Of a DNA stretch of 34,045 nucleotides, positions 128 to 21,293 are shown piece after piece. The stretch is from positions 1-34,045 of the forward strand of contig JAZODO010000160.1 in assembly GCA_045597065.1 (NCBI GenBank), given 5' to 3'. This stretch comes from Acutalibacteraceae bacterium. Lineage in GTDB: Bacteria > Bacillota > Clostridia > Oscillospirales > Acutalibacteraceae. Each line of letters starts with the position of its first letter. The first letter of the stretch is position 1. The translations under genes and the position numbers were made by a program. The notes under the pieces are model-generated. The model did no database searches and had not been told where the DNA came from. It worked only from the letters and a program-made list of their open reading frames with translations.

Positions 128-445
128 TTATTTACTAAAAATAATATCTGAACCAACGGCCTTTTCAACCGATGCTTTAAGTCTGTTTACACCGATGCCG
201 TTGTTATTTTTTACTCCCGGAAGAGGAATAATTGCAGGAAGGAACTTTTCGTCGAACTCGGCAATTTCGGTTTCGAGTTCGGCAGCGAGTTCTTCGGTTA
301 TATAAATAACACCGTATTCGCCCGCGCAAAGTTCTTTAAAGGCTGATTTAGCGTTTGCTAAATCGTCGCAAGGGAAGGTGTTGATTCCAACCGCGGCAAA
401 GCCTTTTATGCTTTCGCGGTCGCCAAAGAAAGCAATTTTAACCAT
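128..445 (-). CDS. atpF: V-type ATP synthase subunit F
   Basis: 105 aa, MVKIAFFGDRESIKGFAAVGINTF..., with typical subunit F size and N-terminal beta-strand/GF.AVG motif. Its start overlaps the subunit C stop by 8 nt, suggesting translational coupling. Confidence 0.85.
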   Translation of the reverse strand: MVKIAFFGDRESIKGFAAVGINTFPCDDLANAKSAFKELCAGEYGVIYITEELAAELETEIAEFDEKFLPAIIPLPGVKNNNGIGVNRLKASVEKAVGSDIIFSK

Positions 446-1418
446 ATAGTTCCCTCAACATTTCTCTAACTTTTTTATCGTTTTCGCCTGTTGCTATGCC
501 GCTTTTAATAATTCGGCAAACCTTAATTTCGGCAAGTTTTGCCCAAAGGTAGGCAACAAGAGGTTCGGCCCCTACTGCAACATATTTAGCGCCAAGAACT
601 ATCGACATTAGGTAGTTATCGACAAATCGTTCGAACTCGCTTGGCGAAACCTTATAGGCTTCGACCGCTTCGGCACATTTAAATGCAGTTATATTTGATA
701 AAAGGTTTAACACTTCAGGGGCGCCTTTTAGCGCCGCTTCTTTTAGGCGAGTTTTTGAAACAGGGCCGGTAGTTATTAAACAAATATCGCAAAAATCGGC
801 CGATTTGTTTGCCCTAGCTAAACGAATTGCCGCTTTAACGTTATCGTAAAAAACGGTTGCAAGTAGTAAGTCTTTTAGCATTGGGATTTTTTCTAAATTA
901 GCCTTTTCCGTTTTATAAAGGTTTGCGGCAGTATCTAAAATAGCGTCGCAAAGTTGCGAATCGCCAATTTTAAATAGGGCGTTATAAGCCTTTTCGGCCG
1001 CAGAGGCCATATAAACAGGAAGCAGATTAAACTTTTGCTCCGACACTGCTTTTATTACCGTTTCGGGAGAAACTATTGTTGGGTATAAAAGTAGGTCGTT
1101 ATAATCGGCCGAACAAAGGGTTGCCTTTAAAACGGCCTTTATGTTATGAAAATCGTTAGAGATGATAAAAGGTTCGAACACCGAAAAATCGGGCGCGATT
1201 TCTGCCGCATATTTCCAAACCTTTTGCTCTTCGGCTATAAGAAGCTCATCGATATCACTACCAGTATCGGCAAAGCCGAAGCCTTTATCTTTTAAAAAGG
1301 CAGAAAGAGCCGAAACCGAATTTAAAACGAGCATTTGCTCGATATCTTGTTTTTTAAAAAGCGCAGTTTCTTTTGCTCTTACGTTACCTACCGCAAAGGC
1401 GTAGGATTTAGTTGGCAT
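438..1418 (-). CDS. atpC: V-type ATP synthase subunit C (bacterial/archaeal C, eukaryotic d-like)
   Basis: 326-aa all-helical protein located between E and F as in Enterococcus/Clostridium V-ATPase operons. GGAGGTG RBS. Confidence 0.8.
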   Translation of the reverse strand: MPTKSYAFAVGNVRAKETALFKKQDIEQMLVLNSVSALSAFLKDKGFGFADTGSDIDELLIAEEQKVWKYAAEIAPDFSVFEPFIISNDFHNIKAVLKATLCSADYNDLLLYPTIVSPETVIKAVSEQKFNLLPVYMASAAEKAYNALFKIGDSQLCDAILDTAANLYKTEKANLEKIPMLKDLLLATVFYDNVKAAIRLARANKSADFCDICLITTGPVSKTRLKEAALKGAPEVLNLLSNITAFKCAEAVEAYKVSPSEFERFVDNYLMSIVLGAKYVAVGAEPLVAYLWAKLAEIKVCRIIKSGIATGENDKKVREMLRELYG

Positions 1419-1438
1419 TAAATCACCTCCAAGAAAAA

Positions 1439-2023
1439 TTAGTTAGAAAATAAAATTTTGTTAATTTTATCTTCGAGCTCTTCGCGTTTATCGTTTATAA
1501 CCGCCTTTAAGGTTAGGTTGTATTCGATATCGCCGTATTTTAAAATAAAGCCCGAAGCAATATCGGCCGCAGTTTCGCTAACCGATAAATTTAGGTTTTC
1601 TTTATTTAAAAGGTCTTTAAATAAAGAAACATTACGCGCGAGGTCGGCTTTTCCTAAAATAAGCGTTCCCTCTTGCGCTTTAGCGTTTTTAGCCGCAAGC
1701 GCCGCTAAAAGGGTAAAATATTCCTTATCGGGCAAAGAGATAATTTGCTCTTCGGCCAAATTTAGGGTTTTTTCAATTTCGGCATGTCTTTTAGCGAGTT
1801 TAGCGTCGCGCACGATTAGGTCGGCCGCCGACTCGGCATTATCTTTAATGCTTTTAGCGCGAAGCAAGGCATTAGAGGTAGTGGTAGCTGAATAAGACTT
1901 AACCATTTGGTTGGTTTGGGCCTTTATTTCTTCACACACTGCAGCCGCGTCGTTTAAAGTTTTTTCGGCCTGCAAGTTAGCATCATCTAATATGCCTTGC
2001 AGGATTTTTTCTTCTGCACTCAT
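1439..2023 (-). CDS. atpE: V-type ATP synthase subunit E (peripheral stalk)
   Basis: 194 aa with a long charged coiled-coil N-terminus and a globular C-terminus, positioned between K and C. Confidence 0.8.
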   Translation of the reverse strand: MSAEEKILQGILDDANLQAEKTLNDAAAVCEEIKAQTNQMVKSYSATTTSNALLRAKSIKDNAESAADLIVRDAKLAKRHAEIEKTLNLAEEQIISLPDKEYFTLLAALAAKNAKAQEGTLILGKADLARNVSLFKDLLNKENLNLSVSETAADIASGFILKYGDIEYNLTLKAVINDKREELEDKINKILFSN

Positions 2024-2036
2024 AGTAAACCGCCTA

Positions 2037-4483
<2,447 letters not shown>

Positions 4484-6297: not shown

Positions 6298-7728
6298 TTA
6301 TTTCCAATAATCAGTGTCTGAAGTTATGCCAATACTCTTGGCTTTAAAGGTTGGAACCAGACCTTGTTTTCTTTGCTTTTCGTAGTCTTTAAGGGCTTTA
6401 AAGGCATATTTGCCGAGTATTAGTATTACGGGAATATTTACTAAGGTCATAAGGCCCATAGTAATATCGGCAATATTCCAAAGAAGCCCGGCTTCGAGGC
6501 CTGCTCCAAGCAGAATTACAAGCGCGGCTACTATATAGTAAACGGTAAAGAAAGCTTTACCCGGTTTTCTTTTAAAGATATGGAAAAAGCCTTTTTCTAC
6601 ATAGTAGAGGTTGCCGATAAGGGTTGTAAAGGCGAAAAGAACCATTGCAACGGTTATAAAGATAGGTCCGAATTTACCGAACACATTAGATAAGCAGGAT
6701 TGAACATAGTCGGCTCCGCTAAAATCTTTAGAAGGTTCAACACCCGAGCAAACACACATAAAAGCGGTAGCCGAGCAAACAAGTAAGGTATCGATAAATA
6801 CCGAAAGCACTTGAACAAGGCCTTGTTTTACGGGGTGAGAAACATTGGCCGAGGCCGAAGCGTTAGGAGCAGAACCTACGCCTGCTTCGTTAGAAAATAG
6901 GCCACGTTTAATGCCAAGCATTACACAAGAACCCGCAAAGCCGCCGAATATAGCCTTAAAGTCGAATGCGCCGGTAAAGATTTTTGCAAAAACCGAGGGA
7001 ATAGAGGTTATATTTAAAATCACAACCACGAGCGCAACCAAAATATAGGCAACGCCCATAACGGGAACGCAAAAACCGGTTACTTTAAGGATTCGTTTGC
7101 CGCCGCCAAAAAGACAAAAAGCAACAAGAGCGGCAACTAGGGCGCCAATAATCCAAGAGGTAACGCCCTCTTTATAAAAACTATAACCTGTAAAGGTGGA
7201 TTGTAGGTTATAAGAGGCTAGCATATTAAAGCCCACGCCGTATGTAATAATTAAAAGAACCGAAAAGAGCACCGCAAGTTTTCTTTTTTTAAGGGCGGTT
7301 TCAATATAATAAGCGGGGCCACCGTAGGCTCCGTCGGGACCTCTACGCTTATAAATTTGGGCAAGGGTACTTTCGACAAAGGCCGAAGCGCTACCGATAA
7401 TAGCGATAACCCACATCCAAAAAATAGACCCGTAACCGCCAAGACAAATAGCGGTTGCAACACCTACTATATTACCTGTTCCAACTCTGGAAGCGGTTGA
7501 AACCATTAGGGCTTGGAAAGAGGAAACCCCTTTACCATCGGTTGGTTTTTCGGTTACTGCGCGGAATTGTTCTTTAAGTAGGCGGAAAGAGACGAATTTG
7601 GTTCTAAAGGTAAAATAAAGACCTGCGGCTACTAAAAGAATTATTAAAATATAGCCATAGAGCACATCTACTGCTTGACCGCTAAAAACATTTAGTCGGT
7701 CGAAAACCCAGCTGAAAAAATCTGCCAA
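6298..7728 (-). CDS. Sodium:alanine (amino acid) symporter, AGCS family
   Basis: 476-aa polytopic protein with SSFQALMVSTASRVGTGNIVGVATAI and GLFSNEAGVGSAPNA motifs typical of alanine/glycine:cation symporters. TTG start with an AAGGATGA RBS. Confidence 0.9.
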   Translation of the reverse strand: MADFFSWVFDRLNVFSGQAVDVLYGYILIILLVAAGLYFTFRTKFVSFRLLKEQFRAVTEKPTDGKGVSSFQALMVSTASRVGTGNIVGVATAICLGGYGSIFWMWVIAIIGSASAFVESTLAQIYKRRGPDGAYGGPAYYIETALKKRKLAVLFSVLLIITYGVGFNMLASYNLQSTFTGYSFYKEGVTSWIIGALVAALVAFCLFGGGKRILKVTGFCVPVMGVAYILVALVVVILNITSIPSVFAKIFTGAFDFKAIFGGFAGSCVMLGIKRGLFSNEAGVGSAPNASASANVSHPVKQGLVQVLSVFIDTLLVCSATAFMCVCSGVEPSKDFSGADYVQSCLSNVFGKFGPIFITVAMVLFAFTTLIGNLYYVEKGFFHIFKRKPGKAFFTVYYIVAALVILLGAGLEAGLLWNIADITMGLMTLVNIPVILILGKYAFKALKDYEKQRKQGLVPTFKAKSIGITSDTDYWK

Positions 7729-7751
7729 ATTGTATCATCCTTTCGATAAAC

Positions 7752-8903
7752 TTATATCTTAGCTTTAATAAACTTTAAAATCTCGTTTTGGTCTTTTGCT
7801 AAAAGTTTTCCTTGTGTACAGTTTGGCTTTCCGCCGCCTTTACCCGAAAAAGCTCCGTTTAACTCTTTAGTAATTTCGGTTAGGTTTTCGCTTTTAGATA
7901 AGAGAAGATAATTAAAATTATTACCCTCTTCAAAAGAGAAAAGGGCTACTGTTTTAGCCGTTTCACAAAGGGTGTTCGCGATATTTCTAAGACAATTAAA
8001 ATCGGCATTTTGGGTAAAGCCAATAACCGACTCCCCTACCTTTTCGGTTTTAAGGTTTGCGGTAGCGAGTTTTTCTAAAAGCCCCTTATTTTCAAAGCGG
8101 GCAGCATTAAGGTCGGCAGATAGTTTTTCAACCGACTCGGCTATTTCTTCTCTTTTTGCAGAAAGTTGTTTCATAATACTTTTAGCAGCGTTATGAAGAT
8201 AAGTATAATCGGCAAGAGCGAGCGAACCCGCAACCATTTCGATACGAGTACCACCCTTAAAAGAGTAAAAGTTTACTATTTTAATAAGGCCAATCTCCCC
8301 CGCTCTAGCAGGATGGGGAGCGCAACAAGCACAGATGTCGAAACCTTCTACATTTATAAGGCGAACGCCCTCTTTAAGTTCTATTTTGCTACGGCAATTT
8401 ATATTTTCAAACTCTTCTACCGTTGGGGTTAGTACCGTAATTTCGGCATTTTCGAAAACGGCGCGGTTGGCTTCGAGTTCTATCTGCTCAATGTTTTCGG
8501 GGGTTAGTGTACCGCTAACATCAAACGTAACAAGCGAATCGTTCATATGAAAACCAACGTTATTAAACCCGAAAAGTTTATGAATAACGCCCGATAAAAT
8601 ATGTTCGGCACAGTGGTTTTGCATACGAGAAAAGCGAAGTGCGAAGTCAATTTTACCGACTACTTCTTCTAAAACATTCAAGGGGCTTTCCAGGGTATGA
8701 ACAACCTCTTCGCCACTTTCTTGAACATCTAAAACGGGGATGCCATTTAACACACCTTTATCGGGGGCTTGGCCGCCGCCTTCGGGAAAAAATGCAGTTT
8801 TATCGAGGATTACTAAAAACTTACCGTTTTTCTCTGTACAGGAAACTACGGTAGCAGTAAATTCTTTTATATAAGAATTTGTTTCGTAAAGTTTTTGTGT
8901 CAT
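7752..8903 (-). CDS. alaX: AlaX-L type alanyl-tRNA editing protein (Ser/Gly-tRNA(Ala) deacylase; AlaRS second additional domain plus DHHA1-like C-terminus)
   Basis: 383 aa. Zinc-site motifs HxxxH (NHCAEHILSG) and CxxxH (CACCAPHPARAGEIG) are present, plus C-terminal GKGGGKPNCTQGK resembling the DHHA1 GGG..AQG motif. Confidence 0.8.
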   Translation of the reverse strand: MTQKLYETNSYIKEFTATVVSCTEKNGKFLVILDKTAFFPEGGGQAPDKGVLNGIPVLDVQESGEEVVHTLESPLNVLEEVVGKIDFALRFSRMQNHCAEHILSGVIHKLFGFNNVGFHMNDSLVTFDVSGTLTPENIEQIELEANRAVFENAEITVLTPTVEEFENINCRSKIELKEGVRLINVEGFDICACCAPHPARAGEIGLIKIVNFYSFKGGTRIEMVAGSLALADYTYLHNAAKSIMKQLSAKREEIAESVEKLSADLNAARFENKGLLEKLATANLKTEKVGESVIGFTQNADFNCLRNIANTLCETAKTVALFSFEEGNNFNYLLLSKSENLTEITKELNGAFSGKGGGKPNCTQGKLLAKDQNEILKFIKAKI

Positions 8904-8991
8904 AAAATTGTCCTTTAAGAATTACTTGTATAGTTAAATCATTGTTAGCGGTGGGATCAAGCCCCCACCCTACGCTATAATATTTGCTTAC

Positions 8992-9022
8992 TTAAATAAA
9001 GAGGCCGAAAACGCTCGACCTC
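8992..9022 (-). terminator. Intrinsic terminator after gatB
   Basis: Minus-strand RNA forms gaggucg(agcguuuu)cggccuc, a 7-bp stem with one G-U, followed by UUUAUUUAA. It lies 11 nt downstream of the gatB stop. Confidence 0.65.
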
Positions 9023-9032
9023 TTTTTAGTTT

Positions 9033-10439
9033 TTAGTTAAGTTTTTGTTCGAGTAATGATTTAATTACGGCAGGGTCGCCAATTCCTTTTAGTTCCTTCA
9101 TACAAGAACCAAAGAGGGCCATTAGCGCTTTAACCTTACCGCCCTTATAGTCGGCAACGGCGGCAGGATTTTCGGCAATAACGCGGTCGACAACCGCTTC
9201 GATTTGGGCGGCATCTACCTTAGCATTAAGTCCCTGTTCTTCGCAATAGTTGTCAACATCTACATCATTTTCAAATACAGCGGCAAGAACCTTTTTACCC
9301 GCATTACGGGTAATTTCGCTACTATCGACAAGTTCGATAATACGGGAAAGTTTTTCGGGCGCGATAGATAAGGTTTCTAGGCCTAAATAGCGCATACGGC
9401 TCATACATTCGGTTAAAATCCAAGAAGCAACGCTCTTAGGTTCTCTGCCCATTTCTACAACCTTATCGAACATAGCGCAAAGTTTAGCATCGCTTGCCAA
9501 TACTGCGGCTTCTTTTACAGCAATACCCATATCTACGTATTTTTGGCCCTTTTCTTCGGCAGTAGCGGGCATGCCGGCCTTAATTTCGGCAAGCCATTCA
9601 TCATCGATAATAATAGGCATAAGGTTCGGGTCGGGGAAATAGCGGTAGTCGCCCGCGGTTTCTTTATTTCTCATAGGGAAGGTTCTACGCTTAACTTCGT
9701 CCCAACGGCGGGTTTCTTGAACGAGCATTTCGGTACGGCGTTCGATAGCGTCGACATGGCGAACCTTTTCAAATTCGATAGCGTCTTTAATTTCGGCGAA
9801 TGAGCTCATATTTTTAATTTCGCTTCTAACGCCTAGTTGGTCGGAACCTTCGGGGCGAACAGAGATGTTAACGTCGCAACGCATAGCGCCTTCTTCACAT
9901 TCCGAAATTCCGGCAAATTGAAGAGCGGCTTTAAGCTTTTTAAGGTAGGTTATAACCTCGTCGGAACTTCTGAAATCGGGTTTAGAAACGATTTCGATTA
10001 GAGGTACACTTGTACGGTTATAGTCTACAAGAGAGGTGTTGGTAGCGTCGTCGTGAACGAGTTTACCCGCATCTTCTTCTACGTGAATTTGCTTAATGCC
10101 TATTTTTCTTTCGCCTACTTCTACGCTGCCTTCTACGCAAACGGGGTTAAACCATTGGGTAATTTGGTAGGCGCAGGGTAGGTCGGGATAATAGTAACTT
10201 TTTTTATCGAAGGTAGTATACTGGTTAATTTTGCAGTTAAGCATTAAACCCGCTTTAACGGCGAGTTCGATAGCGTGTTTGTTAGTTACGGGAAGCATAC
10301 CTGGCATACCCGAGCAAGCAGGACAAACACAGTCGTTAGGCTCATCGGCAGCGGCATGGCCACCGCAAGAACAAAAAAGTTTTGAATCGGTAGCAAGTTC
10401 TACGTGGGTTTCCAGACCAATAACGAGTTCGTATTTCAT
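9033..10439 (-). CDS. gatB: Asp-tRNA(Asn)/Glu-tRNA(Gln) amidotransferase subunit B
   Basis: MKYELVIGLETHVEL..., DKKSYYYPDLP, IHVEEDAGK and a C-terminal YqeY-like tail are present. I place the start at the ATG at 10439, which has an AAGGAGGAAG RBS and lies 1 nt after the gatA stop. The ORF-track start at 10472 adds 11 unsupported residues. Confidence 0.9.
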   Translation of the reverse strand: MKYELVIGLETHVELATDSKLFCSCGGHAAADEPNDCVCPACSGMPGMLPVTNKHAIELAVKAGLMLNCKINQYTTFDKKSYYYPDLPCAYQITQWFNPVCVEGSVEVGERKIGIKQIHVEEDAGKLVHDDATNTSLVDYNRTSVPLIEIVSKPDFRSSDEVITYLKKLKAALQFAGISECEEGAMRCDVNISVRPEGSDQLGVRSEIKNMSSFAEIKDAIEFEKVRHVDAIERRTEMLVQETRRWDEVKRRTFPMRNKETAGDYRYFPDPNLMPIIIDDEWLAEIKAGMPATAEEKGQKYVDMGIAVKEAAVLASDAKLCAMFDKVVEMGREPKSVASWILTECMSRMRYLGLETLSIAPEKLSRIIELVDSSEITRNAGKKVLAAVFENDVDVDNYCEEQGLNAKVDAAQIEAVVDRVIAENPAAVADYKGGKVKALMALFGSCMKELKGIGDPAVIKSLLEQKLN

Positions 10440-10440
10440 A

Positions 10441-11646
10441 TTATGCTTCCTCCTTTTCCAAAACTTTTGCAAAACTTAAAAGTTCGCTTTCGGCAAAATA
10501 GTTGCCAACAAGTTGAATTCCGCCGGAAACTACCGCAGGCATACCTGTAATAGAAGCGGGCGCGGTATATGCGCTTTCTTCGAAAACGGTTCTAAACTGT
10601 TCGGCAAATTCTTCGCCGTCGAGAGTTTTTGCGGTAGAAACGTCGAGTTCTTTAGTTTGACTAAATGCGGGAATTAAGAGTGCGGTAAAGCCTTTTTCGA
10701 AAAGCGCGGTTAAAGCTTCTACCGCGAGTTTACGAATTTTAAGGGCCTTATCGTAGCAAGATTCGTATTTACCTTTAGAGAGTACGTCGGAACCGTAGAT
10801 AATGGTAGCTTTGGTTAAGAAGTTAAAGCCTTCGGTTCGGCTACCAACATAGAGTTCGTCGATATTTTTGTATTTTTCGGTTCTGTGGCCATATTTAACG
10901 CCATCGAAACGAGAAAGGTTATTGGTAGTTTCGGCCGACATTAGAATATTCCAAGCGGTTTGAATATCTTTTACAAGGGGAAGAGAGATTTCTTCTACTT
11001 CTACGCCCTGTTTTTTAAGTTCTTCGGCAGTATCAAGTAGTTTTACCTTAGCCTCATTAGTAGCAAGGTTTAAAAGTTCTTTAATAATAGCAACCTTTTT
11101 ACCCTTTACAGAAAGGCCTGTATTATATTCGTATTTTTCGGTTTTAAGTGAGGTTCCGTCTTTAGAGTCGAAACCTGATACTACGCCTAAAACTTCGGCA
11201 GCGGTATCGGCATTTTTAGCAGTAACGCCAATTTGTTCTCCCGAACAAGCGCAAGCGATAACACCATAACGGGAAACAGTACCGTAGGTGGGCTTTACAA
11301 AGGTAACTCCCTTTATTGCGGCGGCACGACGGGGCGCACCGTTTAAATCAACATTTAAAGCGGCTTTTACCGCGCCTTCGGCTACAAGAGCGGCAGCGGC
11401 ACAAGTTTCATTTTCAGAAGTTTCGCCGTAAAGGTCGAGCCCGAATTCGCCAACAGCGGTTTTACCCGAAAGGGTGTAACCGGCAGCGGTAAGTTTTTCT
11501 ACTGCGGTTGCAGTAAATAAGGGAACAAAGTTTTTAAGCATTTTAGAACCGGCAGTTGCAGGATAGCCTTTTACTAAAATAGTATCGTCTACCGCGATGT
11601 TGCCGTTTTTACTGATTTCTGTAATATATTTAGCCAATTTACACAC
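10441..11646 (-). CDS. gatA: GatA-like amidase-family protein, N-terminally truncated and apparently lacking the Ser-cisSer-Lys triad
   Basis: Collinear with GatA (AGSKMLKNFVPLFTATAVEKL, KPTYGTVSRYG, NLSRFDGVKYG, SRTEGF) and placed between gatC and gatB. It is about 400 aa and has no GGSSGGS loop. The start is ambiguous: GTG at 11646, or TTG at 11637 with better RBS spacing. Confidence 0.75.
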   Translation of the reverse strand: MCKLAKYITEISKNGNIAVDDTILVKGYPATAGSKMLKNFVPLFTATAVEKLTAAGYTLSGKTAVGEFGLDLYGETSENETCAAAALVAEGAVKAALNVDLNGAPRRAAAIKGVTFVKPTYGTVSRYGVIACACSGEQIGVTAKNADTAAEVLGVVSGFDSKDGTSLKTEKYEYNTGLSVKGKKVAIIKELLNLATNEAKVKLLDTAEELKKQGVEVEEISLPLVKDIQTAWNILMSAETTNNLSRFDGVKYGHRTEKYKNIDELYVGSRTEGFNFLTKATIIYGSDVLSKGKYESCYDKALKIRKLAVEALTALFEKGFTALLIPAFSQTKELDVSTAKTLDGEEFAEQFRTVFEESAYTAPASITGMPAVVSGGIQLVGNYFAESELLSFAKVLEKEEA

Positions 11647-11652
11647 CTACCT

Positions 11653-13758
11653 TTACTTTACGAGTCTGGGAACCTGCCAACTATCTTCGGTAGCCTGAGG
11701 AGCGCCCGAAAGTAGGTCGGCACGGGAGAAGGGTTGTTTTCTTTCGTCGGTTCTAAGAACATTGGTCATAGGACGAACGTGAACCATAGATTCGGTATTT
11801 TCGGTATCTACCTTACCGAGTTCTTCTTCTTTAAGGGCCATGTTTTTAAAGATTTTTTCCATAGCCTTCTTTTCGTCGGTATCAAATTTAAGTTGGTTTA
11901 CCTGTTCGAGTGCATCGAGTTTTGCTTTACCCGAAGTAACCCCGGCTTTAGAGGCAGAAACGGCCGAAGCAAAAGCCGAGCCATCGCCCGCAGAACCGAA
12001 GGTATCGGCACCTTCTTTACCGCGAATAGCAACGTTGGCTTCGAATAGTTGAAGTTCGGTAACTTCGCTTGGAGCGCCAAGTAACTGGTCTTGGGCGGCG
12101 CCATCTAGCGGGAATGCGATAACGTCGCGAATGGTTTCGGTGTCGGCTAAAAGCATTACAATACGGTCGACACCGGGGGCCATACCTGCATGAGGGGGCG
12201 CACCGAATTGGAAAGCGTTATAAAGCGCAGAGAAACGCTTTTCAACTTCGCTTTCTTCGTAGCCCGCAATAGAGAAGGCCTTTCTCATAATTTCGGGGCT
12301 GTGGTTACGAACTGCACCGGATGCAAGTTCTATACCGTTACAAACAAGGTCGTACTGGTAGGCGTTAATTGTACAAGGGTCTTTTGTTTCGAGCGCTTCG
12401 AGTCCGCCTTGGGGCATTGAGAAGGGGTTGTGGGTAAAGATGATGCTGTCGGTAGTTTCGTCGAGTTCGTACATAGGGAAATCTACAACGAAGCAGAATT
12501 CGAAAGAATCTTTATTGATAAGGCCGAGTTCGTTACCAAGCCAGGTACGAATAACACCTGCGTTTTTGTCGGCAGTGCCGGACACGTTGTCGCAAATGAA
12601 GAAGATTGTTTCTCCCTCTTTAACGCCGGTTAGTTCTACGATTTCGCGTTTTTGTTCGTCAGATAAAACCTTTGAAATCGGGTCGTCTTTAAAGGTATAG
12701 GTAGCGGCATCGAGTAAAGTGATATGAGCAAGGCCTGCCATTTTTGCTTGTTTTTGAGCAAAGTCGAGCGATTTATCGAAGAACCAACGCTCTGCCTTAC
12801 AAGGAGCAACAATACCGCGAACGGGTTTGTTCATAAAGGGTTTAAAGGGAGCGCGGGTAAAGAAATCGGAAAGGTCGCAAATAATAAGGGGGTTTCTAAG
12901 GTCGGGCTTATCGGAGCCGTATTTAGCCATTGCTTCGGCAAAGGGAATTCTTCTAAAAGGGGTAGAAGAAATAGGCTTATCAGAGAAGGTTCTAAACACA
13001 TCGGCAACAACCGATTCACAAACTTCCAGAACTTCATCTTGGGTAGCAAAGGCCATTTCGAAGTCGAGCTGATAGAACTCGCCGGGGGAACGGTCGGCAC
13101 GAGCATCTTCGTCTCTAAAACAGGGGGCAATTTGGAAATAACGGTCGAAACCGGACACCATTAAAAGTTGTTTAAATTGCTGAGGTGCTTGGGGAAGAGC
13201 GTAGAATTTACCCGGATGTTTACGAGAAGGTACAAGGAAGTCGCGAGCGCCTTCGGGAGAAGAGGCGGTTAGAATAGGAGTTTGAATATCTAAAAATCCG
13301 CGTTCTTCCATAAGGCGGCGCATATGGCCGATAACCTTACTGCGAAGAATAATATTATCGTGAAGTTTTTTAGAACGTAGGTCTAAAAAGCGGTGTTTAA
13401 GACGGATGTTTTCGTTAGTATTTACCGCGCCTACTTCAAAGGGTAAATCTCTGGTACAAGCGCCGAGTACGGTTACGCTATCGGCTACAAGTTCTACGTC
13501 GCCTGTTGCGATTTTTGGGTTTTCGGTTCCCGCATCACGAAGGGTAACGGTACCCTTTGTAGAAATAACGGTTTCTTTGGCGATTCCTTTAAGCAGGTTT
13601 TCGTTATGAACAACTACCTGGGTTACGCCCGTTTCGTCGCGCAAATCGACAAACAAAACTCCGCCGTGGTCGCGAATTACTTCGACCCAGCCTGCGAGTT
13701 CTACCGTTTGACCGATATGCTCTTTTCTTATTTCGTTGCAACGATGAGTTCTATACAT
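11653..13758 (-). CDS. aspS: Aspartyl-tRNA synthetase (bacterial type with GAD insertion) fused in frame to a C-terminal GatC domain
   Basis: Starts at MYRTHRCNEIRKEHIGQTVELAGWV (GGAGG RBS). Class II motifs are present (FRDEDARADRSPGEFYQLDFE; GAPPHAGMAPGVDRIVML). After ...EANVAIR comes a 34-aa G/A/S-rich linker (nt 11920-12021), then 88 aa of GatC-like sequence (nt 11656-11919) ending VHVRPMTNVLRTDERKQPFSRADLLSGAPQATEDSWQVPRLVK. The 42 codons upstream of the ATG in the ORF track cover the T-box terminator and are not coding. Confidence 0.85.
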   Translation of the reverse strand: MYRTHRCNEIRKEHIGQTVELAGWVEVIRDHGGVLFVDLRDETGVTQVVVHNENLLKGIAKETVISTKGTVTLRDAGTENPKIATGDVELVADSVTVLGACTRDLPFEVGAVNTNENIRLKHRFLDLRSKKLHDNIILRSKVIGHMRRLMEERGFLDIQTPILTASSPEGARDFLVPSRKHPGKFYALPQAPQQFKQLLMVSGFDRYFQIAPCFRDEDARADRSPGEFYQLDFEMAFATQDEVLEVCESVVADVFRTFSDKPISSTPFRRIPFAEAMAKYGSDKPDLRNPLIICDLSDFFTRAPFKPFMNKPVRGIVAPCKAERWFFDKSLDFAQKQAKMAGLAHITLLDAATYTFKDDPISKVLSDEQKREIVELTGVKEGETIFFICDNVSGTADKNAGVIRTWLGNELGLINKDSFEFCFVVDFPMYELDETTDSIIFTHNPFSMPQGGLEALETKDPCTINAYQYDLVCNGIELASGAVRNHSPEIMRKAFSIAGYEESEVEKRFSALYNAFQFGAPPHAGMAPGVDRIVMLLADTETIRDVIAFPLDGAAQDQLLGAPSEVTELQLFEANVAIRGKEGADTFGSAGDGSAFASAVSASKAGVTSGKAKLDALEQVNQLKFDTDEKKAMEKIFKNMALKEEELGKVDTENTESMVHVRPMTNVLRTDERKQPFSRADLLSGAPQATEDSWQVPRLVK

Positions 13759-14005
13759 TAAATTGCCTCCATATTGCTTTTTATAAACAAAAAATAAAGC
13801 CCCGAGAATACCAAAAAGTATTCTCGGGACGAATAGAATAAAATATCCGCGGTGCCACCCGGTTTGGTGTTTTACTAAAAACACCCGCTTTTATATTTAG
13901 TTGAGACGGCGACGAAGCGTTCCCTACTTACTACTTATCTGAAACGCGCTTTCAGTCGGCGACGCGTTCTCCCTGGCAGACTTTCCAAAAAAGCAGAGTC
14001 TTCGT
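13759..14005 (-). promoter_or_regulatory. T-box riboswitch leader (tRNA-sensing); best-fitting specifier codon AAC (Asn) at 13919-13921
   Basis: Minus-strand RNA contains the T-box sequence AAACCGGGUGGCACCGCGG (13847-13865). It also has an AG-bulge-like AGGGAGA, a distal-loop-like GACUGAAAG, and a terminator/antiterminator pair. AAC followed by a purine (G) sits immediately 5' of CUUCGU, which can pair with ACGAAG at the 5' end. Confidence 0.8.
13788..13828 (-). terminator. T-box leader terminator (attenuator) hairpin
   Basis: Minus-strand RNA forms cccgagaauac(uuuuug)guauucucggg, an 11-bp perfect stem, followed by GCUUUAUUUUUU. It lies 30 nt upstream of the aspS ATG. Its 5' arm is preceded by UUCGUCCC, the usual antiterminator 3' strand. 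Confidence 0.8.
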
Positions 14006-14010
14006 TTATT

Positions 14011-14038
14011 ATTATACCAAAAAAGTTTAATTTGTCAA
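14011..14038 (-). promoter_or_regulatory. Sigma-A-type promoter of the T-box/aspS-gatC-gatA-gatB operon
   Basis: The minus strand reads TTGACA, a 16-nt spacer, then TATAAT, with TGg just upstream of the -10 (extended -10). Confidence 0.6.
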
Positions 14039-14071
14039 CAAATTTTAACTTCCAAATAAGCCCAAAAACCA

Positions 14072-14752
14072 TTAAAAAATAGTTTTAATACAGGTTTTAA
14101 TATCGGAAACAAAGTTAAAGTTTTTAAGGTAATCTAAATTATAAATCATTTTTTCGGGTAGAATTTTTTCTATATAAGCTTTATCTACCGAAAGGCCCGA
14201 ATTTATGAGTTCGGCCATTTTTTCGTCTTCGTTTCTAAAAGCGATACTCGCAAGCGAGGTTATACCTGCCGGAAGAAGCAAGGTAGCATACATTTCGGGG
14301 GTATAGGCATTAACATATCGGCGAACTTCGGGGCGGGTTCCAACAAAGGACATTTGGCCCGAAAAAACGTTAAAGAGTTGAGGGATTTCGTCGAGCCTTG
14401 AAGCGCGAATTTTTAAACCAACTCGGGTAATTCTACTATCGCCCGAAACGGTAATTAAAGCGCCCTTTTGGTCGGCATTTTGGACCATTGTTCTAAACTT
14501 TAAAATTTTAAAGGTTTTACCAAGGCTCGTTACCCTTTCGCTCTTATAAAGAACGGGGCCTTTAGAATCGAGTTTTATCCAAACCGATAGTACGAGCATT
14601 ACGGGGCTAAGCAGTATAATTAAAAGGCCCGAAGCCAAAATATCGAAAGCTCGTTTTAAAAAACGGGAAAAGGCCTTTTTCTTTAAAATGTTATAATAGG
14701 GGCGAACCTCTTCGGTTTGCATATAAGTTGGAAGCGATTCCCACCTTAACAT
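14072..14752 (-). CDS. Small monotopic phosphoglycosyl transferase (bacterial sugar transferase family, PglC/EpsL/WbaP-C-terminal type)
   Basis: 226 aa: KRAFDILASGLLIILLSPVMLVLSVWIKLDSKGPVLYKSERV...FKILKFRTM...DEIPQLFNVFSGQMSFVGTRP, the canonical re-entrant helix plus catalytic core. The ATG overlaps the aminotransferase stop by 7 nt. Confidence 0.85.
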   Translation of the reverse strand: MLRWESLPTYMQTEEVRPYYNILKKKAFSRFLKRAFDILASGLLIILLSPVMLVLSVWIKLDSKGPVLYKSERVTSLGKTFKILKFRTMVQNADQKGALITVSGDSRITRVGLKIRASRLDEIPQLFNVFSGQMSFVGTRPEVRRYVNAYTPEMYATLLLPAGITSLASIAFRNEDEKMAELINSGLSVDKAYIEKILPEKMIYNLDYLKNFNFVSDIKTCIKTIF

Positions 14753-16129: not shown

Positions 16130-18187
16130 TTAGTCGGCTTTGCTTTCGGCAATAATTTTTTGAGCTATTGAGGCAGGGACTTCTTCATAACGGGCAAATT
16201 CGGTATAGAAGGAACCAACACCACGGGTTACAGAGCGGAGAACTGTTGGGAAATCGGCAAGTTCGCTTTCGGGAACTTCGGCTGTAATAACCATAAGTTT
16301 TCCGTCGGGGTCCATACCAAGCACTCTACCGCGACGCTTTGTAACGTCGCCCATAATATCACCCGAGTTATCGGACGGAACGGTTGCAACAAGGGTTACA
16401 ACGGGTTCGAGCAGTACGGGGTTTGCTTCGGGGATACCTGCTTTAAAGGCAAGCGAAGCGGCGGTTTTAAAGGCAAGTTCCGAAGAATCTACCGGATGGT
16501 AGGAACCGTCGGTTAAGGTGGCCTTTACGCCAACCATCGGGTAGCCCGCTAAAACGCCTGTAAGGGCAGATTCTTGTAATCCCTTTTCAACAGCGGGGAA
16601 ATAGTTTTTAGGAACCGCGCCGCCAAATACGGTTTCGGCAAATTCTAAACCTTCGCAGTCGGAGGGTTCGAACTCAATCCAAACATCGCCAAACTGGCCA
16701 TGACCGCCCGATTGTTTTTTATGGCGGCCCTGAGCTTTAGCCTTTTTACGAATAGTTTCGCGGTAGGCAACCTTGGGGGCTTCGAATAATACTTCTACGC
16801 CAAATTTAGCCTTTAATTTGCTTGCAACAATGTCGAGATGTTGTTCGCCAAGACCTGATAGAATGAGTTCGCCGGTAGCATCGTTATTTTTAAGGGTAAC
16901 GGTTGGGTCTTCTTCGGCTAAACGCATAAGGCCGGCGGCGAGTTTTTCTTCTTCGCCCTTATTTTTGGGGCGAACAGCCATTTTATAGTTAGGAAGTTCA
17001 TAGGAAATATCGGGCAAACGAATAGGACGAGCGGGAGAACAAAGGGTATCGCCCGTTCCGGTTGCATTAAGCTTTGCAACGGCGCCGATATCGCCCGCAT
17101 AAACACAGGAAGTTTCTACCTGTTTTTTACCGCAAACGAAGTAAAGTTTACCAATACGTTCGTTAGCGCCTGTTCTCATATTAAGAAGGGTCATATCGGA
17201 GGTAACCTTACCGCTTACAACCTTAAAGTAAACAAGTTTTCCAACAAACGGGTCTACTACTGTTTTAAATACGATAGCGGCGGTTTGAGCATCGTCGCTA
17301 ACGGTAAGTTCAATTTCGTTACCGTTATTATCTACGCCGATTTCGCCGGCAACCGTTTCGGCCCAAGGAGCAAGCCAGATAAGGCCGTTTAAGAGTTGGT
17401 CAACGGCTTGAAGTTCGGCCGCACTTCCGCAGAATACGGGAGCAATTTCACCGCGGCGAACGCCTGTTGCAAGGCCCATAATAAGTTCGTCGGGGGTAAA
17501 TTCTTCGCCCGAGAAATATTTTTCCATAAGTTCTTCGCTTGTTTCGGCAACCGCTTCGTTAATAGCGGTACGAAGACCTTCTAATCGGTGGCCCATATCG
17601 GGCATAGGAACAACCGAAGCCTTACCGTTTTCGTAAGCATAGGCGCGGTATTCGATTAGATTTATGTAACACTGAACCTTATTTTCAACAACATAGGGAA
17701 CAACTATTGGGCAAACCATAGGACCGAAGGTTGTTTTAAGGTCTTCAAACACCTTATAAAAATCGGCATGTTCGTGGTCGATTTTATTTATAAAGAATAA
17801 TTTAGCAATACCTTTTTTAGTAGCGGCATCGAAGGCTTTTTTAGCGCCTACCGAAACGCCGCTCTTACCCGAAATTACAATAACCGAACTACCGGCTGCG
17901 CGGAAGCCTTCGCTTACCGAAGCCGAAAAGTCGAACTGACCGGGAGTATCGATAACGTTAATTTTAACATCTTTCCATTCACAGGGAATAACCGATGCCG
18001 ATACGCTGGATTTTCTGCGGATTTCTTCAGGGTCAAAATCGGAAACGGTATTACCTTCGGCAATAGTGCCTAGGCGGTCGGACTTACCTGTAATATAATA
18101 AGCCGCCTCTACCAAAGAGGTTTTTCCTGCCGAAGCATGGCCGGAAAATACAACGTTTCGAATATTTTTTGCTTTATAGTCTTTCAA
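16130..18187 (-). CDS. Elongation factor G paralogue (EF-G2-like translational GTPase) with divergent switch regions
   Basis: 685 aa with five-domain EF-G length. G1 is GHASAGKTS, G3 is DTPGQFDF, G4 is NKID. TTG start with an AAAGGGG RBS. Confidence 0.8.
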   Translation of the reverse strand: MKDYKAKNIRNVVFSGHASAGKTSLVEAAYYITGKSDRLGTIAEGNTVSDFDPEEIRRKSSVSASVIPCEWKDVKINVIDTPGQFDFSASVSEGFRAAGSSVIVISGKSGVSVGAKKAFDAATKKGIAKLFFINKIDHEHADFYKVFEDLKTTFGPMVCPIVVPYVVENKVQCYINLIEYRAYAYENGKASVVPMPDMGHRLEGLRTAINEAVAETSEELMEKYFSGEEFTPDELIMGLATGVRRGEIAPVFCGSAAELQAVDQLLNGLIWLAPWAETVAGEIGVDNNGNEIELTVSDDAQTAAIVFKTVVDPFVGKLVYFKVVSGKVTSDMTLLNMRTGANERIGKLYFVCGKKQVETSCVYAGDIGAVAKLNATGTGDTLCSPARPIRLPDISYELPNYKMAVRPKNKGEEEKLAAGLMRLAEEDPTVTLKNNDATGELILSGLGEQHLDIVASKLKAKFGVEVLFEAPKVAYRETIRKKAKAQGRHKKQSGGHGQFGDVWIEFEPSDCEGLEFAETVFGGAVPKNYFPAVEKGLQESALTGVLAGYPMVGVKATLTDGSYHPVDSSELAFKTAASLAFKAGIPEANPVLLEPVVTLVATVPSDNSGDIMGDVTKRRGRVLGMDPDGKLMVITAEVPESELADFPTVLRSVTRGVGSFYTEFARYEEVPASIAQKIIAESKAD

Positions 18188-18360: not shown

Positions 18361-19227
18361 TTAGTATAATATTTTCTTAATTTTTTGTTTTAATATAACC
18401 CTAAACGAAAATAAGCAAACGGCCGCCTTAATAAGGCCGCAAAAAAAGCAAACTATATAGAGAAAAATATCGAGCCTTGAAAAAATATGACCGATAGAGG
18501 CGGTTGAAACGGCGCTTGAATAAGGGTAGATTAGGGTAGACGCGAATTCGCTTCCGAAAACCAATAAGGTATTTAAAAAAGAAATTAAAACAAAGCCGAG
18601 CCCAAAGATAAAAGATAGCGCCATAGGCGGATTTTTAATATTTTTACCCAAAACAGAAAGGGGCAAAAGCGACGATATAAAATATAGGAAATAGCGAATA
18701 AACGCCCCCAAAGCCCCAAAAAGAGTTGGCTCTTTATAGGGTATTAAATATTTAATTTGGGCAAAGGGCAACGAAAAGCCGAACATTAAAAGAATTAAAA
18801 CGGTAAAAAGCGGAAAAATTAAAAGGCTAAATTTAAAAAGTTTCTCCCTTTTAGAAAAGGCTAATACTACCGATAGCCCCAAAAATGCTATAAAGGGTAG
18901 CGCTATACTGCTCCCCTTTAACATTACGCCAGAAACATAGGCCGAAAGATTTAAAAGGCAAAAGGTAAGGCTAATTAAAATAGCAACAGAAAGCCCTAAA
19001 AACAAAACCCACGAAATAAAAGGTTTATTTTTCAGTTTTAAAAGGGTTTTACTTTTTAAGGCGAATTTTATAAAAAACGCACAAGCGGTAACAACCGCCG
19101 CCGCCAGTACAAAACCTAAAAGGTCGTTCGCGGTATTTTTAGTAAAATAAAAAAGCAACAAATTATCGCCTACAACGGTAGTTGCCGCAAGGGCAAAAAA
19201 CTTTCTGTTAAAACAAAGTTCTTTCAT
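18361..19227 (-). CDS. Polytopic membrane protein, probable GerAB/GerKB-type (permease-like) germinant receptor B subunit, short form
   Basis: 288 aa, about 8 hydrophobic segments by eye. It is the third gene after GerAA-like and GerAC-like genes. The assignment is mainly positional. Confidence 0.5.
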   Translation of the reverse strand: MKELCFNRKFFALAATTVVGDNLLLFYFTKNTANDLLGFVLAAAVVTACAFFIKFALKSKTLLKLKNKPFISWVLFLGLSVAILISLTFCLLNLSAYVSGVMLKGSSIALPFIAFLGLSVVLAFSKREKLFKFSLLIFPLFTVLILLMFGFSLPFAQIKYLIPYKEPTLFGALGAFIRYFLYFISSLLPLSVLGKNIKNPPMALSFIFGLGFVLISFLNTLLVFGSEFASTLIYPYSSAVSTASIGHIFSRLDIFLYIVCFFCGLIKAAVCLFSFRVILKQKIKKILY

Positions 19228-19243
19228 TTATATCTCCCTCAGA

Positions 19244-19828
19244 TTATGCCATTTGGTTACCAAAATAGCATAAACCTAAAACCTTTGGCAGATTGTTTTT
19301 AGCGCTTATTAAGGGGAGCGAAAACCTACCCTCGTTTACTAAAAGGGCGGTTTGAATTTCGAAAAGGGCAGTATGGTCGCCAAAGCCGAAATATTTAGCG
19401 TTTTCCCGAGTTAAGGCGCTAATTTCGCTTCCCGACGAAAGAGAAAAAAGGTCTTCTATTTCCGAGGCCGAAACAAGCGGCGTACTAAGCGAAACATTAA
19501 GTTTAGAGCAAAGGTCTAAAACCGTTTCTATTTGGTTTTTAGGCATATTTTGATTTATAGCAATTAACGAACAATGAGAAAAAGAGGGGGTTTTATTAAG
19601 TTTTGTTTTTATATCGTTAAGGGCGCTAAAAGCGGTATCTCCCCTACCCGATACAACCTCTAATTTAGAATTTTCAGCCGACACATTTACATATTGAAGA
19701 TAAATTTCGATATTTTCCTCTACGGCCGAAAAGCCTATTGCCGAAACGGTATATACGGCGTTTGGCTCGGTATAGCCGCAACCCGAAAGAGCCAAAAGAC
19801 ATAAAACTAAAAATAACGCTTTTTTCAT
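19244..19828 (-). CDS. Lipoprotein, probable Ger(x)C-type germinant receptor C subunit, half-length
   Basis: 194 aa with signal peptide and lipobox MKKALFLVLCLLALSGC. Its start overlaps the gerAA-like stop (ATGA), suggesting translational coupling. Canonical GerAC proteins are roughly twice as long. Confidence 0.5.
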   Translation of the reverse strand: MKKALFLVLCLLALSGCGYTEPNAVYTVSAIGFSAVEENIEIYLQYVNVSAENSKLEVVSGRGDTAFSALNDIKTKLNKTPSFSHCSLIAINQNMPKNQIETVLDLCSKLNVSLSTPLVSASEIEDLFSLSSGSEISALTRENAKYFGFGDHTALFEIQTALLVNEGRFSLPLISAKNNLPKVLGLCYFGNQMA

Positions 19829-21279
19829 AAAGTTTTCCTATACTTATTTTTTGTTTGAATTTTTGGGCGAGTAATCATTTTGGTCCAGTTAGCCCTTACT
19901 AAAACATCTTTAAGCCCCTGAAAAGTTGGGGTATTTAGAGATAATGTGGCGCTAGCGCCCAGCGACTTTAAACCCAAAATATGAATTATTACAACACTCC
20001 ACAAAAGAAGTATTCCAAAAACTCCAAGCAAAGCCGCAGCGAATATAAAGCCAAAGCGCAGATAGAAAACGGCAGCGCGAAGGCGCGGCACCATAAGACC
20101 GCATATTCCCGCAAGGGCAACGGCAATAAGAATTGGCGCGCTAATGATTTTAGCTTCTACCGCCGATTGACCTACAACCAAACCGCCAACGATACTAAGG
20201 GCGTGGCCAACGCTTTGGGGCATTCTAACCCCGGTTTCGCGAAGAATTTCAAAGGTAAGGCAGAGCAGTACACATTCGGCCAAACCAGAAAAAGGAACCC
20301 CCTGGCGCGAACGGGAAATAGTTTGGGCAAAGGCTTCGGGCAAAAATTCGAAATGGTAGGTTATAAAGGCCAAAAAAAGGCCCGGAACCGTAACCGAAAG
20401 AAAAAAAGCCAAAAACCTTAAAAACCTTTGGGCCGAGGCTAAAAGATAGCCTATATAATAGTCTTCGTCGGATTGAAAGTTTTCGGAAAAAAGGTAGGGC
20501 ATAGTTATAACAACGGGTGTTGTGTCTACAATCAAAGCTATTCTTCCCTCTAAAAGTCTGGCCGCTACAACATCGGGTCGCTCGGTTGTTCCTACCGTTT
20601 TAAAAAGAGAAAACTTATTATCTCTAACAAGTTCGGTAATATAGTTAGAATCTAAAACCGAATCTATATTTATTTTTGAAAGCTTGGTTTTTAAAGTCCT
20701 TAACATTTCGCGGTTTACAAGCGATTTTAAATAGCAAATAAAAACCATTGTATTTGTTCTTTTTCCAAGGGTTATAAGCTCTGCGCAAAAGTCGGGGGTT
20801 TTAAGGCGGCGGCGAAGCATTGCGAGATTAAACATTGCCGCTTCGTCGAACCCTTCGCGAGGGCCTTCTAAAACCTTTTCGTTTTCGGGTTCGGTAATGC
20901 CGCGAGTTCTCCAACCTTTGCTATTTACAACTATTACGGTTTGGCTATTTTCGAGCAAAAGTAAAGTATCGCCATAGAGGACTGACGAAATCGCGTCTTC
21001 TACCAAAACGGTTTTTTTAATTTCGCTGGCAAAAAGGAGTTTATCGGCAACAAAATCGGCTATAGGTAAATTTTTATCTATTTCGGTTGCGAAAATTAGG
21101 GGTTTTACAACCGATTCATTAATAAGTTCTACGTTTACCATTCCGTCAAAATAAAAGAGGCAAGCCTTTTCATTTTGAAAAACGAGTTCCCTTTTGCGAA
21201 GAACGCTATCGTTTAAAAAAAGGCTTTCGATATATTTTATATTTAAATTTAAAGATTTAAAAAAACGCTTTTCTTCCAT
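19825..21279 (-). CDS. GerAA/GerKA-family spore germination protein (A subunit)
   Basis: About 484 aa with a soluble N-terminal domain and a C-terminal membrane domain. The family hallmark region is present: GRIALIVDTTPVVITMPYLFSENFQSDEDYYIGY. I prefer the ATG at 21279 (GGGTGA RBS) over the TTG at 21291. Confidence 0.85.
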   Translation of the reverse strand: MEEKRFFKSLNLNIKYIESLFLNDSVLRKRELVFQNEKACLFYFDGMVNVELINESVVKPLIFATEIDKNLPIADFVADKLLFASEIKKTVLVEDAISSVLYGDTLLLLENSQTVIVVNSKGWRTRGITEPENEKVLEGPREGFDEAAMFNLAMLRRRLKTPDFCAELITLGKRTNTMVFICYLKSLVNREMLRTLKTKLSKINIDSVLDSNYITELVRDNKFSLFKTVGTTERPDVVAARLLEGRIALIVDTTPVVITMPYLFSENFQSDEDYYIGYLLASAQRFLRFLAFFLSVTVPGLFLAFITYHFEFLPEAFAQTISRSRQGVPFSGLAECVLLCLTFEILRETGVRMPQSVGHALSIVGGLVVGQSAVEAKIISAPILIAVALAGICGLMVPRLRAAVFYLRFGFIFAAALLGVFGILLLWSVVIIHILGLKSLGASATLSLNTPTFQGLKDVLVRANWTKMITRPKIQTKNKYRKTL

Positions 21280-21293
21280 TTTTTCACCCAAAA

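Follow-up and report, generated by a model that had tools for sequence, protein, structure and literature searches.

A homologue of the amidotransferase subunit GatA, encoded on a stretch of DNA from an Acutalibacteraceae bacterium (JAZODO010000160.1 of assembly GCA_045597065.1, positions 1-34,045; the whole stretch is called the window below), is probably a catalytically dead GatA that has been maintained as a subunit of a dedicated machine for forming Asn-tRNA(Asn), in which it would act as a scaffold within an assembly tethered to aspartyl-tRNA synthetase (AspRS) and probably using free ammonia. We refer to its open reading frame (ORF; 10441..11646 (-)) and the orthologues of that ORF as gatA*, and to the protein as GatA*. 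GatCAB is the textbook glutamine-dependent amidotransferase, and the GatA glutaminase with its 30-Å ammonia tunnel is central to the making of Asn-tRNA and Gln-tRNA in most bacteria. The parts of our proposal are not equally secure: that GatA* is a maintained, glutaminase-dead subunit of an Asn-transamidosome seems to us very likely, and the naming of free ammonia specifically as the amide donor is close to an even call, on the lower side.

Fold and active-site residues of GatA*

The GatA* protein matches the Pfam Amidase family (PF01425, E=2.8e-51) and scores 247.1 bits with the NCBIfam gatA model TIGR00132, about half of the equivalog cutoff of 481.1. Searched with phmmer against all PDB chains, it aligns end to end with the GatA subunits of six GatCAB structures (1e-56 to 1e-40), to which it is 32-38% identical, and a profile built from 33 gatA* family sequences gives, against the PDB GatA chains, a collinear alignment that agrees with the single-sequence one. 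An AlphaFold2 model computed from 119 homologues (predicted local distance difference test, pLDDT, 83.5; predicted template modelling score, pTM, 0.88) compares with the GatA chains of GatCAB crystal structures at template modelling (TM) scores of 0.83-0.87; by this model, GatA* is a protein of GatA fold. The original prediction, made by inspecting the sequence, had described a protein of ~400 aa that is collinear with GatA from end to end, and both the alignments and the model bear this out.

The first ~60 canonical residues had been described as absent, and indeed GatA* residues 14-18 pair with S. aureus GatA ~74-77 (canonical columns are numbered throughout after S. aureus GatA and GatB), leaving ~58-60 N-terminal residues without a counterpart. 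There is no room for them upstream, where the aspS-gatC gene stops at 11653. A longer N-terminus, read in another frame or begun further upstream, was ruled out: the ORF is maximal, it abuts the aspS-gatC stop and its homologues start alike. The longest possible frame is 401 aa from a GTG; the true start is likely the TTG at 11637, giving 398 aa, because an AGGTAGG ribosome-binding site precedes this codon and the resulting N-terminus agrees with the MAKYITE at which homologues begin.

In the window protein, the catalytic Lys (K79) corresponds to D20 (IAVDDT; codon 11589..11587), and this column is Asp in 79/79 orthologues (column counts refer to the 79 complete orthologous gatA* ORFs, 382-410 aa). 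The GGSSGGS signature is replaced by ENETCAA with a gap of 15-20 residues (GatA* residues ~72-84, 11433..11395); the cis-Ser column (S154) is Glu or gap in GatA* and Ser in none of the 79. The loop that replaces the signature is shorter, varies in both length and sequence among orthologues and is Ala-rich toward its C-terminal end. The nucleophile S178 pairs with A104 (DLNGAPRR; codon 11337..11335), in a column seen as A/S/T/Y/F/G (Ala in 62 orthologues, Ser in 7, Thr in 6 and other residues in 4). As aligned, the universal losses in the family are those of the Lys and the cis-Ser only; loss of the nucleophile varies.

Both a deletion of ~20 residues at the amidase signature and a triad changed at each position (Lys to Asp, cis-Ser within the deleted loop, nucleophile to Ala) had been proposed from the sequence, and the alignments with the structure chains put the same changes in the same columns. 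Extended to the orthologues, this picture stands for the Lys and the cis-Ser and does not stand for the nucleophile, which is Ser or Thr in 13/79. Profile and structure-based comparison with solved GatAs, of the kind suggested as a check, did not restore Lys, Ser and Ser. A triad hidden by misalignment was ruled out by the agreement of the single-sequence alignment, a profile hidden Markov model (six or seven solved GatAs) and a MAFFT alignment with two references.

The glutamine-binding residues of S. aureus GatA, Tyr309, Arg358 and Asp425 (bioRxiv 10.1101/733030), are replaced as well. The Y309 column holds W232 (Trp in 78/79), the R358 column T281 (Thr or Val in 77/79) and the D425 column S358 (Ser in 71/79). 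In the former pocket, K79 and G130 have become Asp, N424 Glu and Tyr309 Trp, and D174 is retained. With the catalytic and glutamine-binding residues all absent, the alignments argue against glutamine (or Asn) as a donor through the GatA* active site. A protein that fails the tests that define GatA (family cutoff, triad, signature loop and glutamine-binding residues) should, as judged from its sequence, not be annotated as a glutaminase subunit.

GatA* is nevertheless kept under selection. Pairwise Nei-Gojobori ratios of nonsynonymous to synonymous substitution (dN/dS; only pairs with dS < 0.9) are 0.08-0.15 for gatA*, and in the same genome pairs 0.02-0.07 for gatB and 0.03-0.11 for aspS-gatC. 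Altogether 119 GatA* positions are >=97% conserved, and residues 61-80 and 101-140, which flank the former active site, rank among the most conserved segments. A recent pseudogene was ruled out by the 79 intact orthologous ORFs, a dN/dS of ~0.1 and the lack of frameshifts among them. The original prediction had spoken of a maintained pseudo-enzyme and not of decay, and had proposed examining the substitutions in orthologues together with dN/dS; its view is upheld by the complete ORFs, by the dN/dS range, by the synteny kept with aspS-gatC and gatB, and by a Lys that is always Asp and a cis-Ser that is never Ser in genes under purifying selection.

The family is large. A species-level scan with one genome per GTDB species found at least 583 genomes that carry it, and the best 80 of these loci, to which the locus counts below refer, come from Acutalibacteraceae, Oscillospiraceae, Lachnospiraceae, Monoglobaceae and unclassified Clostridia, mostly as ruminant and other gut metagenome-assembled genomes (MAGs). 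In a search of 5.8 billion proteins, the 120 matches listed are 61-99% identical to GatA* and, except for two partial sequences, 382-399 aa long; the few that carry a name are 'hypothetical protein' entries at NCBI, from MAGs of Ruminococcaceae, Oscillospiraceae or Clostridia. When the representatives of 50%-identity clusters were searched exhaustively, many more and deeper GatA-like lineages (356-455 aa) appeared, mostly with Asp or Glu at the Lys column and without the signature loop. P0130 (452 aa) retains the N-terminal segment and sits in an operon of aspS, unfused gatC, gatA* and gatB. Four near-full-length GatA-like proteins (P0158, P0163, P0156 and P0265; 405-472 aa) cluster with canonical GatAs and partly lack the triad, with Ala, Met or Thr at the Lys column. 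The sequences suggest that further independent degenerations of GatA exist. A literature search found no description of a glutaminase-dead GatA, a pseudo-GatA, an AspRS-GatC fusion or the gatA* family, and in a survey of 547 genera for their Asn and Asn-tRNA pathways no mention of a glutaminase-dead GatA was found. Added here to the original prediction, which did not take up the origin of the amide nitrogen, are control by a T-box with Asn specificity, the finding that some genomes have canonical gatCAB as well, and the extent of the family.

Operon architecture, T-box control and the partner GatB

The leader upstream of aspS matches the T-box family over its full length (model 1-219) in an E-value-mode search of the intergenic region (Table 1). 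The promoter before it is the sole perfect site within 7600..14200, and the terminator hairpin alternates with the T-box antiterminator. The T-box core lies upstream of aspS in 62/67 orthologous loci, with an aligned specifier that is AAC in 62/62; in the window the AAC is followed by a purine. The context of the window specifier is GGGAAC (13924..13918 (-)), in which GAA and AAC overlap in a manner reminiscent of the 'two-codon' NT-box of C. acetobutylicum; many orthologous leaders read GGCAAC or GGTAAC, the preceding base varying and AAC alone being conserved. All aligned specifiers are AAC, and the operon is therefore expected to be induced by uncharged tRNA-Asn. By analogy, this argues strongly for Asn-tRNA(Asn) as the product, because the T-box(Asn) logic matches that of the C. 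acetobutylicum aspS-gatCAB operon, which is reported to be controlled by a tRNA-Asn T-box and to provide a route to Asn-tRNA (Saad et al. 2012, J Biol Chem 287:20382).

The first gene of the operon encodes AspRS and GatC as one polypeptide composed of an OB fold, a class II core, a GAD domain, a ~35-residue linker rich in Ala, Ser and Gly and a C-terminal GatC domain (~11656..11925). Pfam finds tRNA-synt_2 (2.7e-109), tRNA_anti-codon, GAD and GatC (4.1e-8), and NCBIfam aspS scores 734 bits; the GatC domain reaches 33.7 bits with Pfam GatC (cutoff 23) and 45.3 bits with TIGR00135, slightly under its cutoff of 47.1. We place the start at ATG 13758 because the leader lies upstream of it and the product matches the N-termini of PDB AspRS chains. 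A 743-aa ORF (11653..13884) was ruled out as the protein, since its first 42 codons cross the T-box and the terminator. The best PDB matches are AspRS enzymes of Asp/Asn type, yet the discriminating AspRS of E. coli scores nearly equal. The His of RDHGG, a signature of non-discriminating AspRS, is present in the window protein. Non-discriminating activity is presumed in the mechanism proposed below.

Essentially all 80 loci share the order aspS(-gatC), gatA*, gatB, which places gatA* between gatC and gatB. Of 76 orthologous loci, 72 have GatC fused to AspRS; the other four, among them L059 and L081 (94-95 aa), encode it as a small ORF of its own. In the window, the gatB ATG at 10439 follows one base past the gatA* stop, with signals of translational coupling. 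The C-terminus of GatA* reads LEKEEA (10441..10465 (-)) and is encoded by GAAAAGGAGGAAGCATAA, which contains the GGAGG ribosome-binding site of gatB; conservation of LEKEEA probably reflects a constraint at the level of nucleotides.

GatB itself scores at equivalog level (556.6 bits with NCBIfam against a cutoff of 338; Pfam GatB_N 3.6e-108 and GatB_Yqey 4.5e-35) and keeps the cradle domain and YqeY tail. Its alignment with the GatBs of S. aureus, A. aeolicus and T. maritima spans the full length, and with two further GatB structures it covers the first ~390 residues. The Mg and ATP residues that were checked, the N-terminal E-x-H (ETH) and EED, are retained, and GatB is thus apparently intact as a catalyst. 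Set against four GatBs of known structure and the canonical L059 paralogue, the 75 GatBs of the family depart consistently at only about a dozen of the columns that are invariant in canonical GatB. Most notably, the final Asp of YRYFPEPD (D274) is Asn in 74/75, and the K88 column, the Lys of DLPKxYQISQ, is Cys in 61, Ala in 11, Gly in 2 and Ser in 1; the window GatB has Cys (C100 in the numbering of the 479-aa ORF). When GatA and GatB of the fetched loci were paired by simple pattern matching, every GatB of 70 Asp-type GatA*/GatB pairs had Cys, Ala, Gly or Ser at K88, and the GatB partners of Lys-type GatAs had Lys in two cases and Gln in two. On the GatA side, the T175 column is hydrophobic in the family (Leu/Met/Val/Ile) and the D211 column is Glu in 79/79.

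Table 1. Positions in the window of gatA*, its operon, the leader elements and the downstream gene
Feature	Position	Strand	Basis or description
gatA*, glutaminase-dead GatA homologue	10441..11646	(-)	Pfam, NCBIfam, phmmer, family profile, AlphaFold2
gatB	9033..10439	(-)	468 aa from ATG 10439; listed ORF 9033..10472, 479 aa
aspS-gatC fusion	11653..13758	(-)	701 aa from ATG 13758
Sigma-70-type promoter TTGACA-16-TATAAT, extended TG	14011..14038	(-)	12/12 consensus, just upstream of leader
T-box leader RNA	13822..14011	(-)	Rfam RF00230, 46.6 bits, E ~3e-9
T-box specifier codon AAC (Asn)	13921..13919	(-)	Covariance-model alignment
T-box core GGGTGGCACCGCG	13860..13848	(-)	Conserved T-box sequence
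Leader terminator hairpin, 14-bp stem + T-run	13799..13830	(-)	Terminator scan; overlaps 3' end of T-box match
alaX-like trans-editing gene	7752..8903	(-)	383-aa ORF; Pfam tRNA_SAD + DHHA1, NCBIfam AlaXM-like

The alaX-like gene begins 129 nt downstream of gatB with no terminator predicted in the gap, and is possibly co-transcribed with the operon. A gene of this kind lies downstream of gatB in ~12-14 of the 80 loci, with L001, L002, L004 and L005, the closest relatives, among them, and this minority occurrence ruled out AlaX as a conserved member of the system. The surroundings in the window (including 16130..18187 (-), 18361..21291 (-) and 438..4483 (-)) hold chromosomal genes of the kind usual in a spore-forming Firmicute, among them an EF-G paralogue, a GerA/GerB/GerC germination operon, V-type ATPase subunits, amino-acid transporters, Der, PlsY and GpsA. 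No ammonium transporter, glutamine synthetase, asparaginyl-tRNA synthetase (AsnRS) or asparagine synthetase was found in the 34 kb.

Source of the amide nitrogen

In the mechanism that we propose, uncharged tRNA-Asn would stabilise the T-box antiterminator and so allow transcription of the operon, the AspRS part of the fusion would charge tRNA-Asn with Asp, and the tethered GatC domain would wrap GatA* and GatB, covalently linking synthetase to amidotransferase. In the canonical complex, the interface between GatA and GatB is wrapped by GatC, which also aids the folding of GatA (PMC2330236). GatB would then phosphorylate Asp-tRNA(Asn) and amidate it to Asn-tRNA(Asn). The amide nitrogen would not be produced in GatA* and would have to come from elsewhere, because GatA* as predicted cannot release ammonia from glutamine; the likeliest source would be free ammonia or ammonium in the cytoplasm of cells from ammonia-rich gut or rumen, entering either via the remodelled former GatA* pocket and tunnel or straight at GatB. 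Indeed, tRNA-dependent amidotransferases accept NH4Cl in place of Gln in vitro, and in yeast GatFAB a disturbed GatA site can raise NH4Cl-dependent transamidation (PMC4027206). Free ammonia would be the simplest nitrogen source, one that fits the ammonia-rich gut and rumen habitats of the family, and we speculate that the acidic residues gained in the dead pocket would suit ammonium binding.

Several observations weigh against this account. Formation of the complex and the role of GatA* as a scaffold holding GatB and the fused GatC are both deduced from homology and gene order. At the Rfam gathering threshold no T-box was found across the window, the 46.6 bits of the match comparing with a gathering score of 93. 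A ligand other than ammonium would explain the high conservation of the dead pocket just as well. K88 of GatB and T175 and D211 of GatA reportedly line the ammonia tunnel, and the occurrence of Gln at K88 in two loci with canonical GatA means that this column is not strictly diagnostic; given also the phylogenetic non-independence of the sequences, we treat the K88, T175 and D211 changes as supporting evidence only for a remodelled route from GatA* to GatB. Two Oscillibacter MAGs, L059 (8786-12080) and L044, carry a complete canonical gatC-gatA-gatB set directly after aspS-gatC'-gatA*-gatB', with a canonical GatA that has GVKDN, GGSSGG and GSDTGGS. In L059 the canonical proteins are 31-42% identical to their paralogues of the gatA* system, which, from these sequences, would be an old paralogous amidotransferase that can coexist with a true glutaminase. 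Finally, a GatD-like gene of the asparaginase family (~340 aa), a potential real generator of ammonia, adjoins the operon in 23/80 loci.

It is in these last two observations that a different source of nitrogen finds its footing: the ammonia might come from a separate amidohydrolase, either the GatD-like protein or a canonical GatA elsewhere such as those next door in L059 and L044, with GatA* serving as a docking or tunnel adaptor. We consider this unlikely, though still a serious contender. The GatD-like gene (L029:8663-9688, L009:2433-3449(-), L051:8668-9723, L059:12201-13157 and 19 further genome loci) stands directly after gatB on the same strand in 14/23 loci and otherwise upstream or divergent. 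Adjacency is seen as well in 8 of ~27 of its closest metagenomic relatives; the metagenome loci with the gene are L085-L087, L100, L103, L104, L109 and L110. The protein has the invariant motifs GGTIC, LSENM and HGTDT; its profile aligns over the full length only to archaeal GatD (1zq1, 2d6f), and (I)LSENM is common to it and the GatD of M. thermautotrophicus. However, it scores far under the cutoffs for type I asparaginase and GatD, it is without the GatD N-terminal domain and its catalytic-Lys column is an invariant Gln, so that it may itself be atypical. Moreover, the gene is absent from the 34-kb window and, within 6 kb, from 57/80 loci; nor is it tied to GatA*, for in L100, L104 and L110 it neighbours aspS, with canonical GatA following in L100 and L110 and L104 showing only aspS. 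Where it lies upstream, it is beyond the T-box-controlled unit. As for a canonical enzyme, no gatCAB set of that kind was found within the window, and a canonical GatA pairing with this GatB would leave the retention of GatA* hard to explain. Judged by its sequence, the GatD-like protein could be a bacterial ammonia donor or an enzyme of Asn metabolism. We did not accept it as an obligatory replacement glutaminase, as it is missing from most loci and the window and also occurs beside canonical gatCAB.

The conservation around the former active site, with many invariant residues specific to the family and beyond what a pure scaffold might need, might instead mean that GatA* is still an enzyme, with catalysis relocated or of a different kind (candidate residues are D20, D71, R107, W232 and C297) and acting on an amide or another nitrogen donor. 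This we think very improbable, in that all six residues known for the binding and attack of glutamine are lost, both the nucleophile column and the signature loop are variable, indicating relaxed constraint where the chemistry would happen, and enzymes of the amidase-signature family are not known to function in the absence of the Ser-cisSer-Lys triad (PMC2330236). We find it hard to credit, too, that the complex is not an amidotransferase at all and is a regulatory, sequestering or kinase-only paralogue, leaving amidation or charging to canonical GatCAB or AsnRS. The coexistence with canonical gatCAB in two loci and the not fully canonical D274 and K88 columns of GatB are compatible with such a role; yet induction by a T-box(Asn) under tRNA-Asn starvation fits a producer of Asn-tRNA and not a sink, GatB stands above the equivalog cutoff with the metal and ATP residues that were checked in place, AspRS is fused to GatC in most loci and all three genes are under strong purifying selection.

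We thus retain as our reading a dead, scaffolding GatA* in an Asn-tRNA(Asn)-forming assembly that probably uses ammonia. That the dead pocket has been turned into an ammonium-capture site feeding a remodelled tunnel, or into a docking site for the GatD-like ammonia generator, is a tentative and somewhat doubtful extension of it. If it is true, tRNA-dependent amidotransferases would gain a new class, intermediate between GatCAB and GatDE; gut and rumen Clostridia would, across a large clade, make Asn-tRNA(Asn) by a route independent of glutamine; and GatA* would be the first pseudoenzyme of the amidase-signature type with a defined role in translation. More generally, hundreds of species, many of them abundant Clostridia of gut and rumen, appear to keep a GatA incapable of using glutamine, which calls into question whether the glutaminase is indispensable and leads one to expect an amidotransferase that depends on ammonia (or is assisted by a GatD-like protein) and is adapted to ammonia-rich surroundings. 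The family would offer a natural experiment on what the body of GatA does beyond catalysis, perhaps in folding or stabilising GatB, forming the tunnel or coupling to AspRS, and it makes this non-glutaminase role and the use of free ammonia by GatB in vivo directly testable questions. With these proteins labelled 'hypothetical protein', metabolic reconstructions probably miscall the Asn and Asn-tRNA pathways of these organisms.

Relation to known systems

At the level of the system, the sequences suggest an assembly that functions in the manner of a GatCAB Asn-transamidosome and is controlled by a T-box(Asn). Canonical GatCAB (S. aureus 2F2A/2DF4, A. aeolicus 3H0L and the P. aeruginosa Asn-transamidosome 4WJ3) has the same components, the same gatC-gatA-gatB order and an association with AspRS. 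Unlike it, the present system has a GatA* without the triad, GGSSGGS, the glutamine-binding Tyr, Arg and Asp and ~60 N-terminal residues, a GatC that is covalently fused to AspRS and a GatB in which K88 is not Lys. The C. acetobutylicum operon reportedly has a normal GatA and an unfused GatC, with no loss of glutaminase reported. It likewise uses an Asn-specifier T-box to drive AspRS together with an amidotransferase set, and the genome can carry a second gatCAB. The bifunctional AspRS/GatC family NF009460 has the same architecture, an AspRS with a C-terminal GatC; the window protein, however, reaches 432.7 bits against a cutoff of 1379, and its fusion is of a different and probably independent lineage.

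Archaeal GatDE also combines a GatB-type kinase/transamidase with a supply of ammonia that does not come from a GatA-type amidase, but it has no GatA or GatC, acts on Glu-tRNA(Gln) and carries an extra insertion domain in GatE. A precedent for a synthetase half running on free ammonia without a glutaminase module is provided by the ammonia- versus glutamine-dependent NAD synthetases (PMC3376133); in NadE, however, the glutaminase domain is simply absent, whereas GatA* is a full-length dead subunit retained under selection. AtzE-AtzG (PDB 6C62) is a precedent for a vestigial complex derived from GatCAB, with a repurposed module and a retained partner scaffold. A parallel to the altered pocket is Tse8, a type VI secretion effector of P. 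aeruginosa that is GatA-like and in which the equivalents of Tyr309, Arg358 and Asp425 are likewise not conserved; it is proposed to act by binding the transamidosome and not through GatA chemistry (bioRxiv 10.1101/733030). Tse8 differs from GatA* in keeping the triad, in being a secreted toxin with an immunity protein and in being encoded outside a gat operon.

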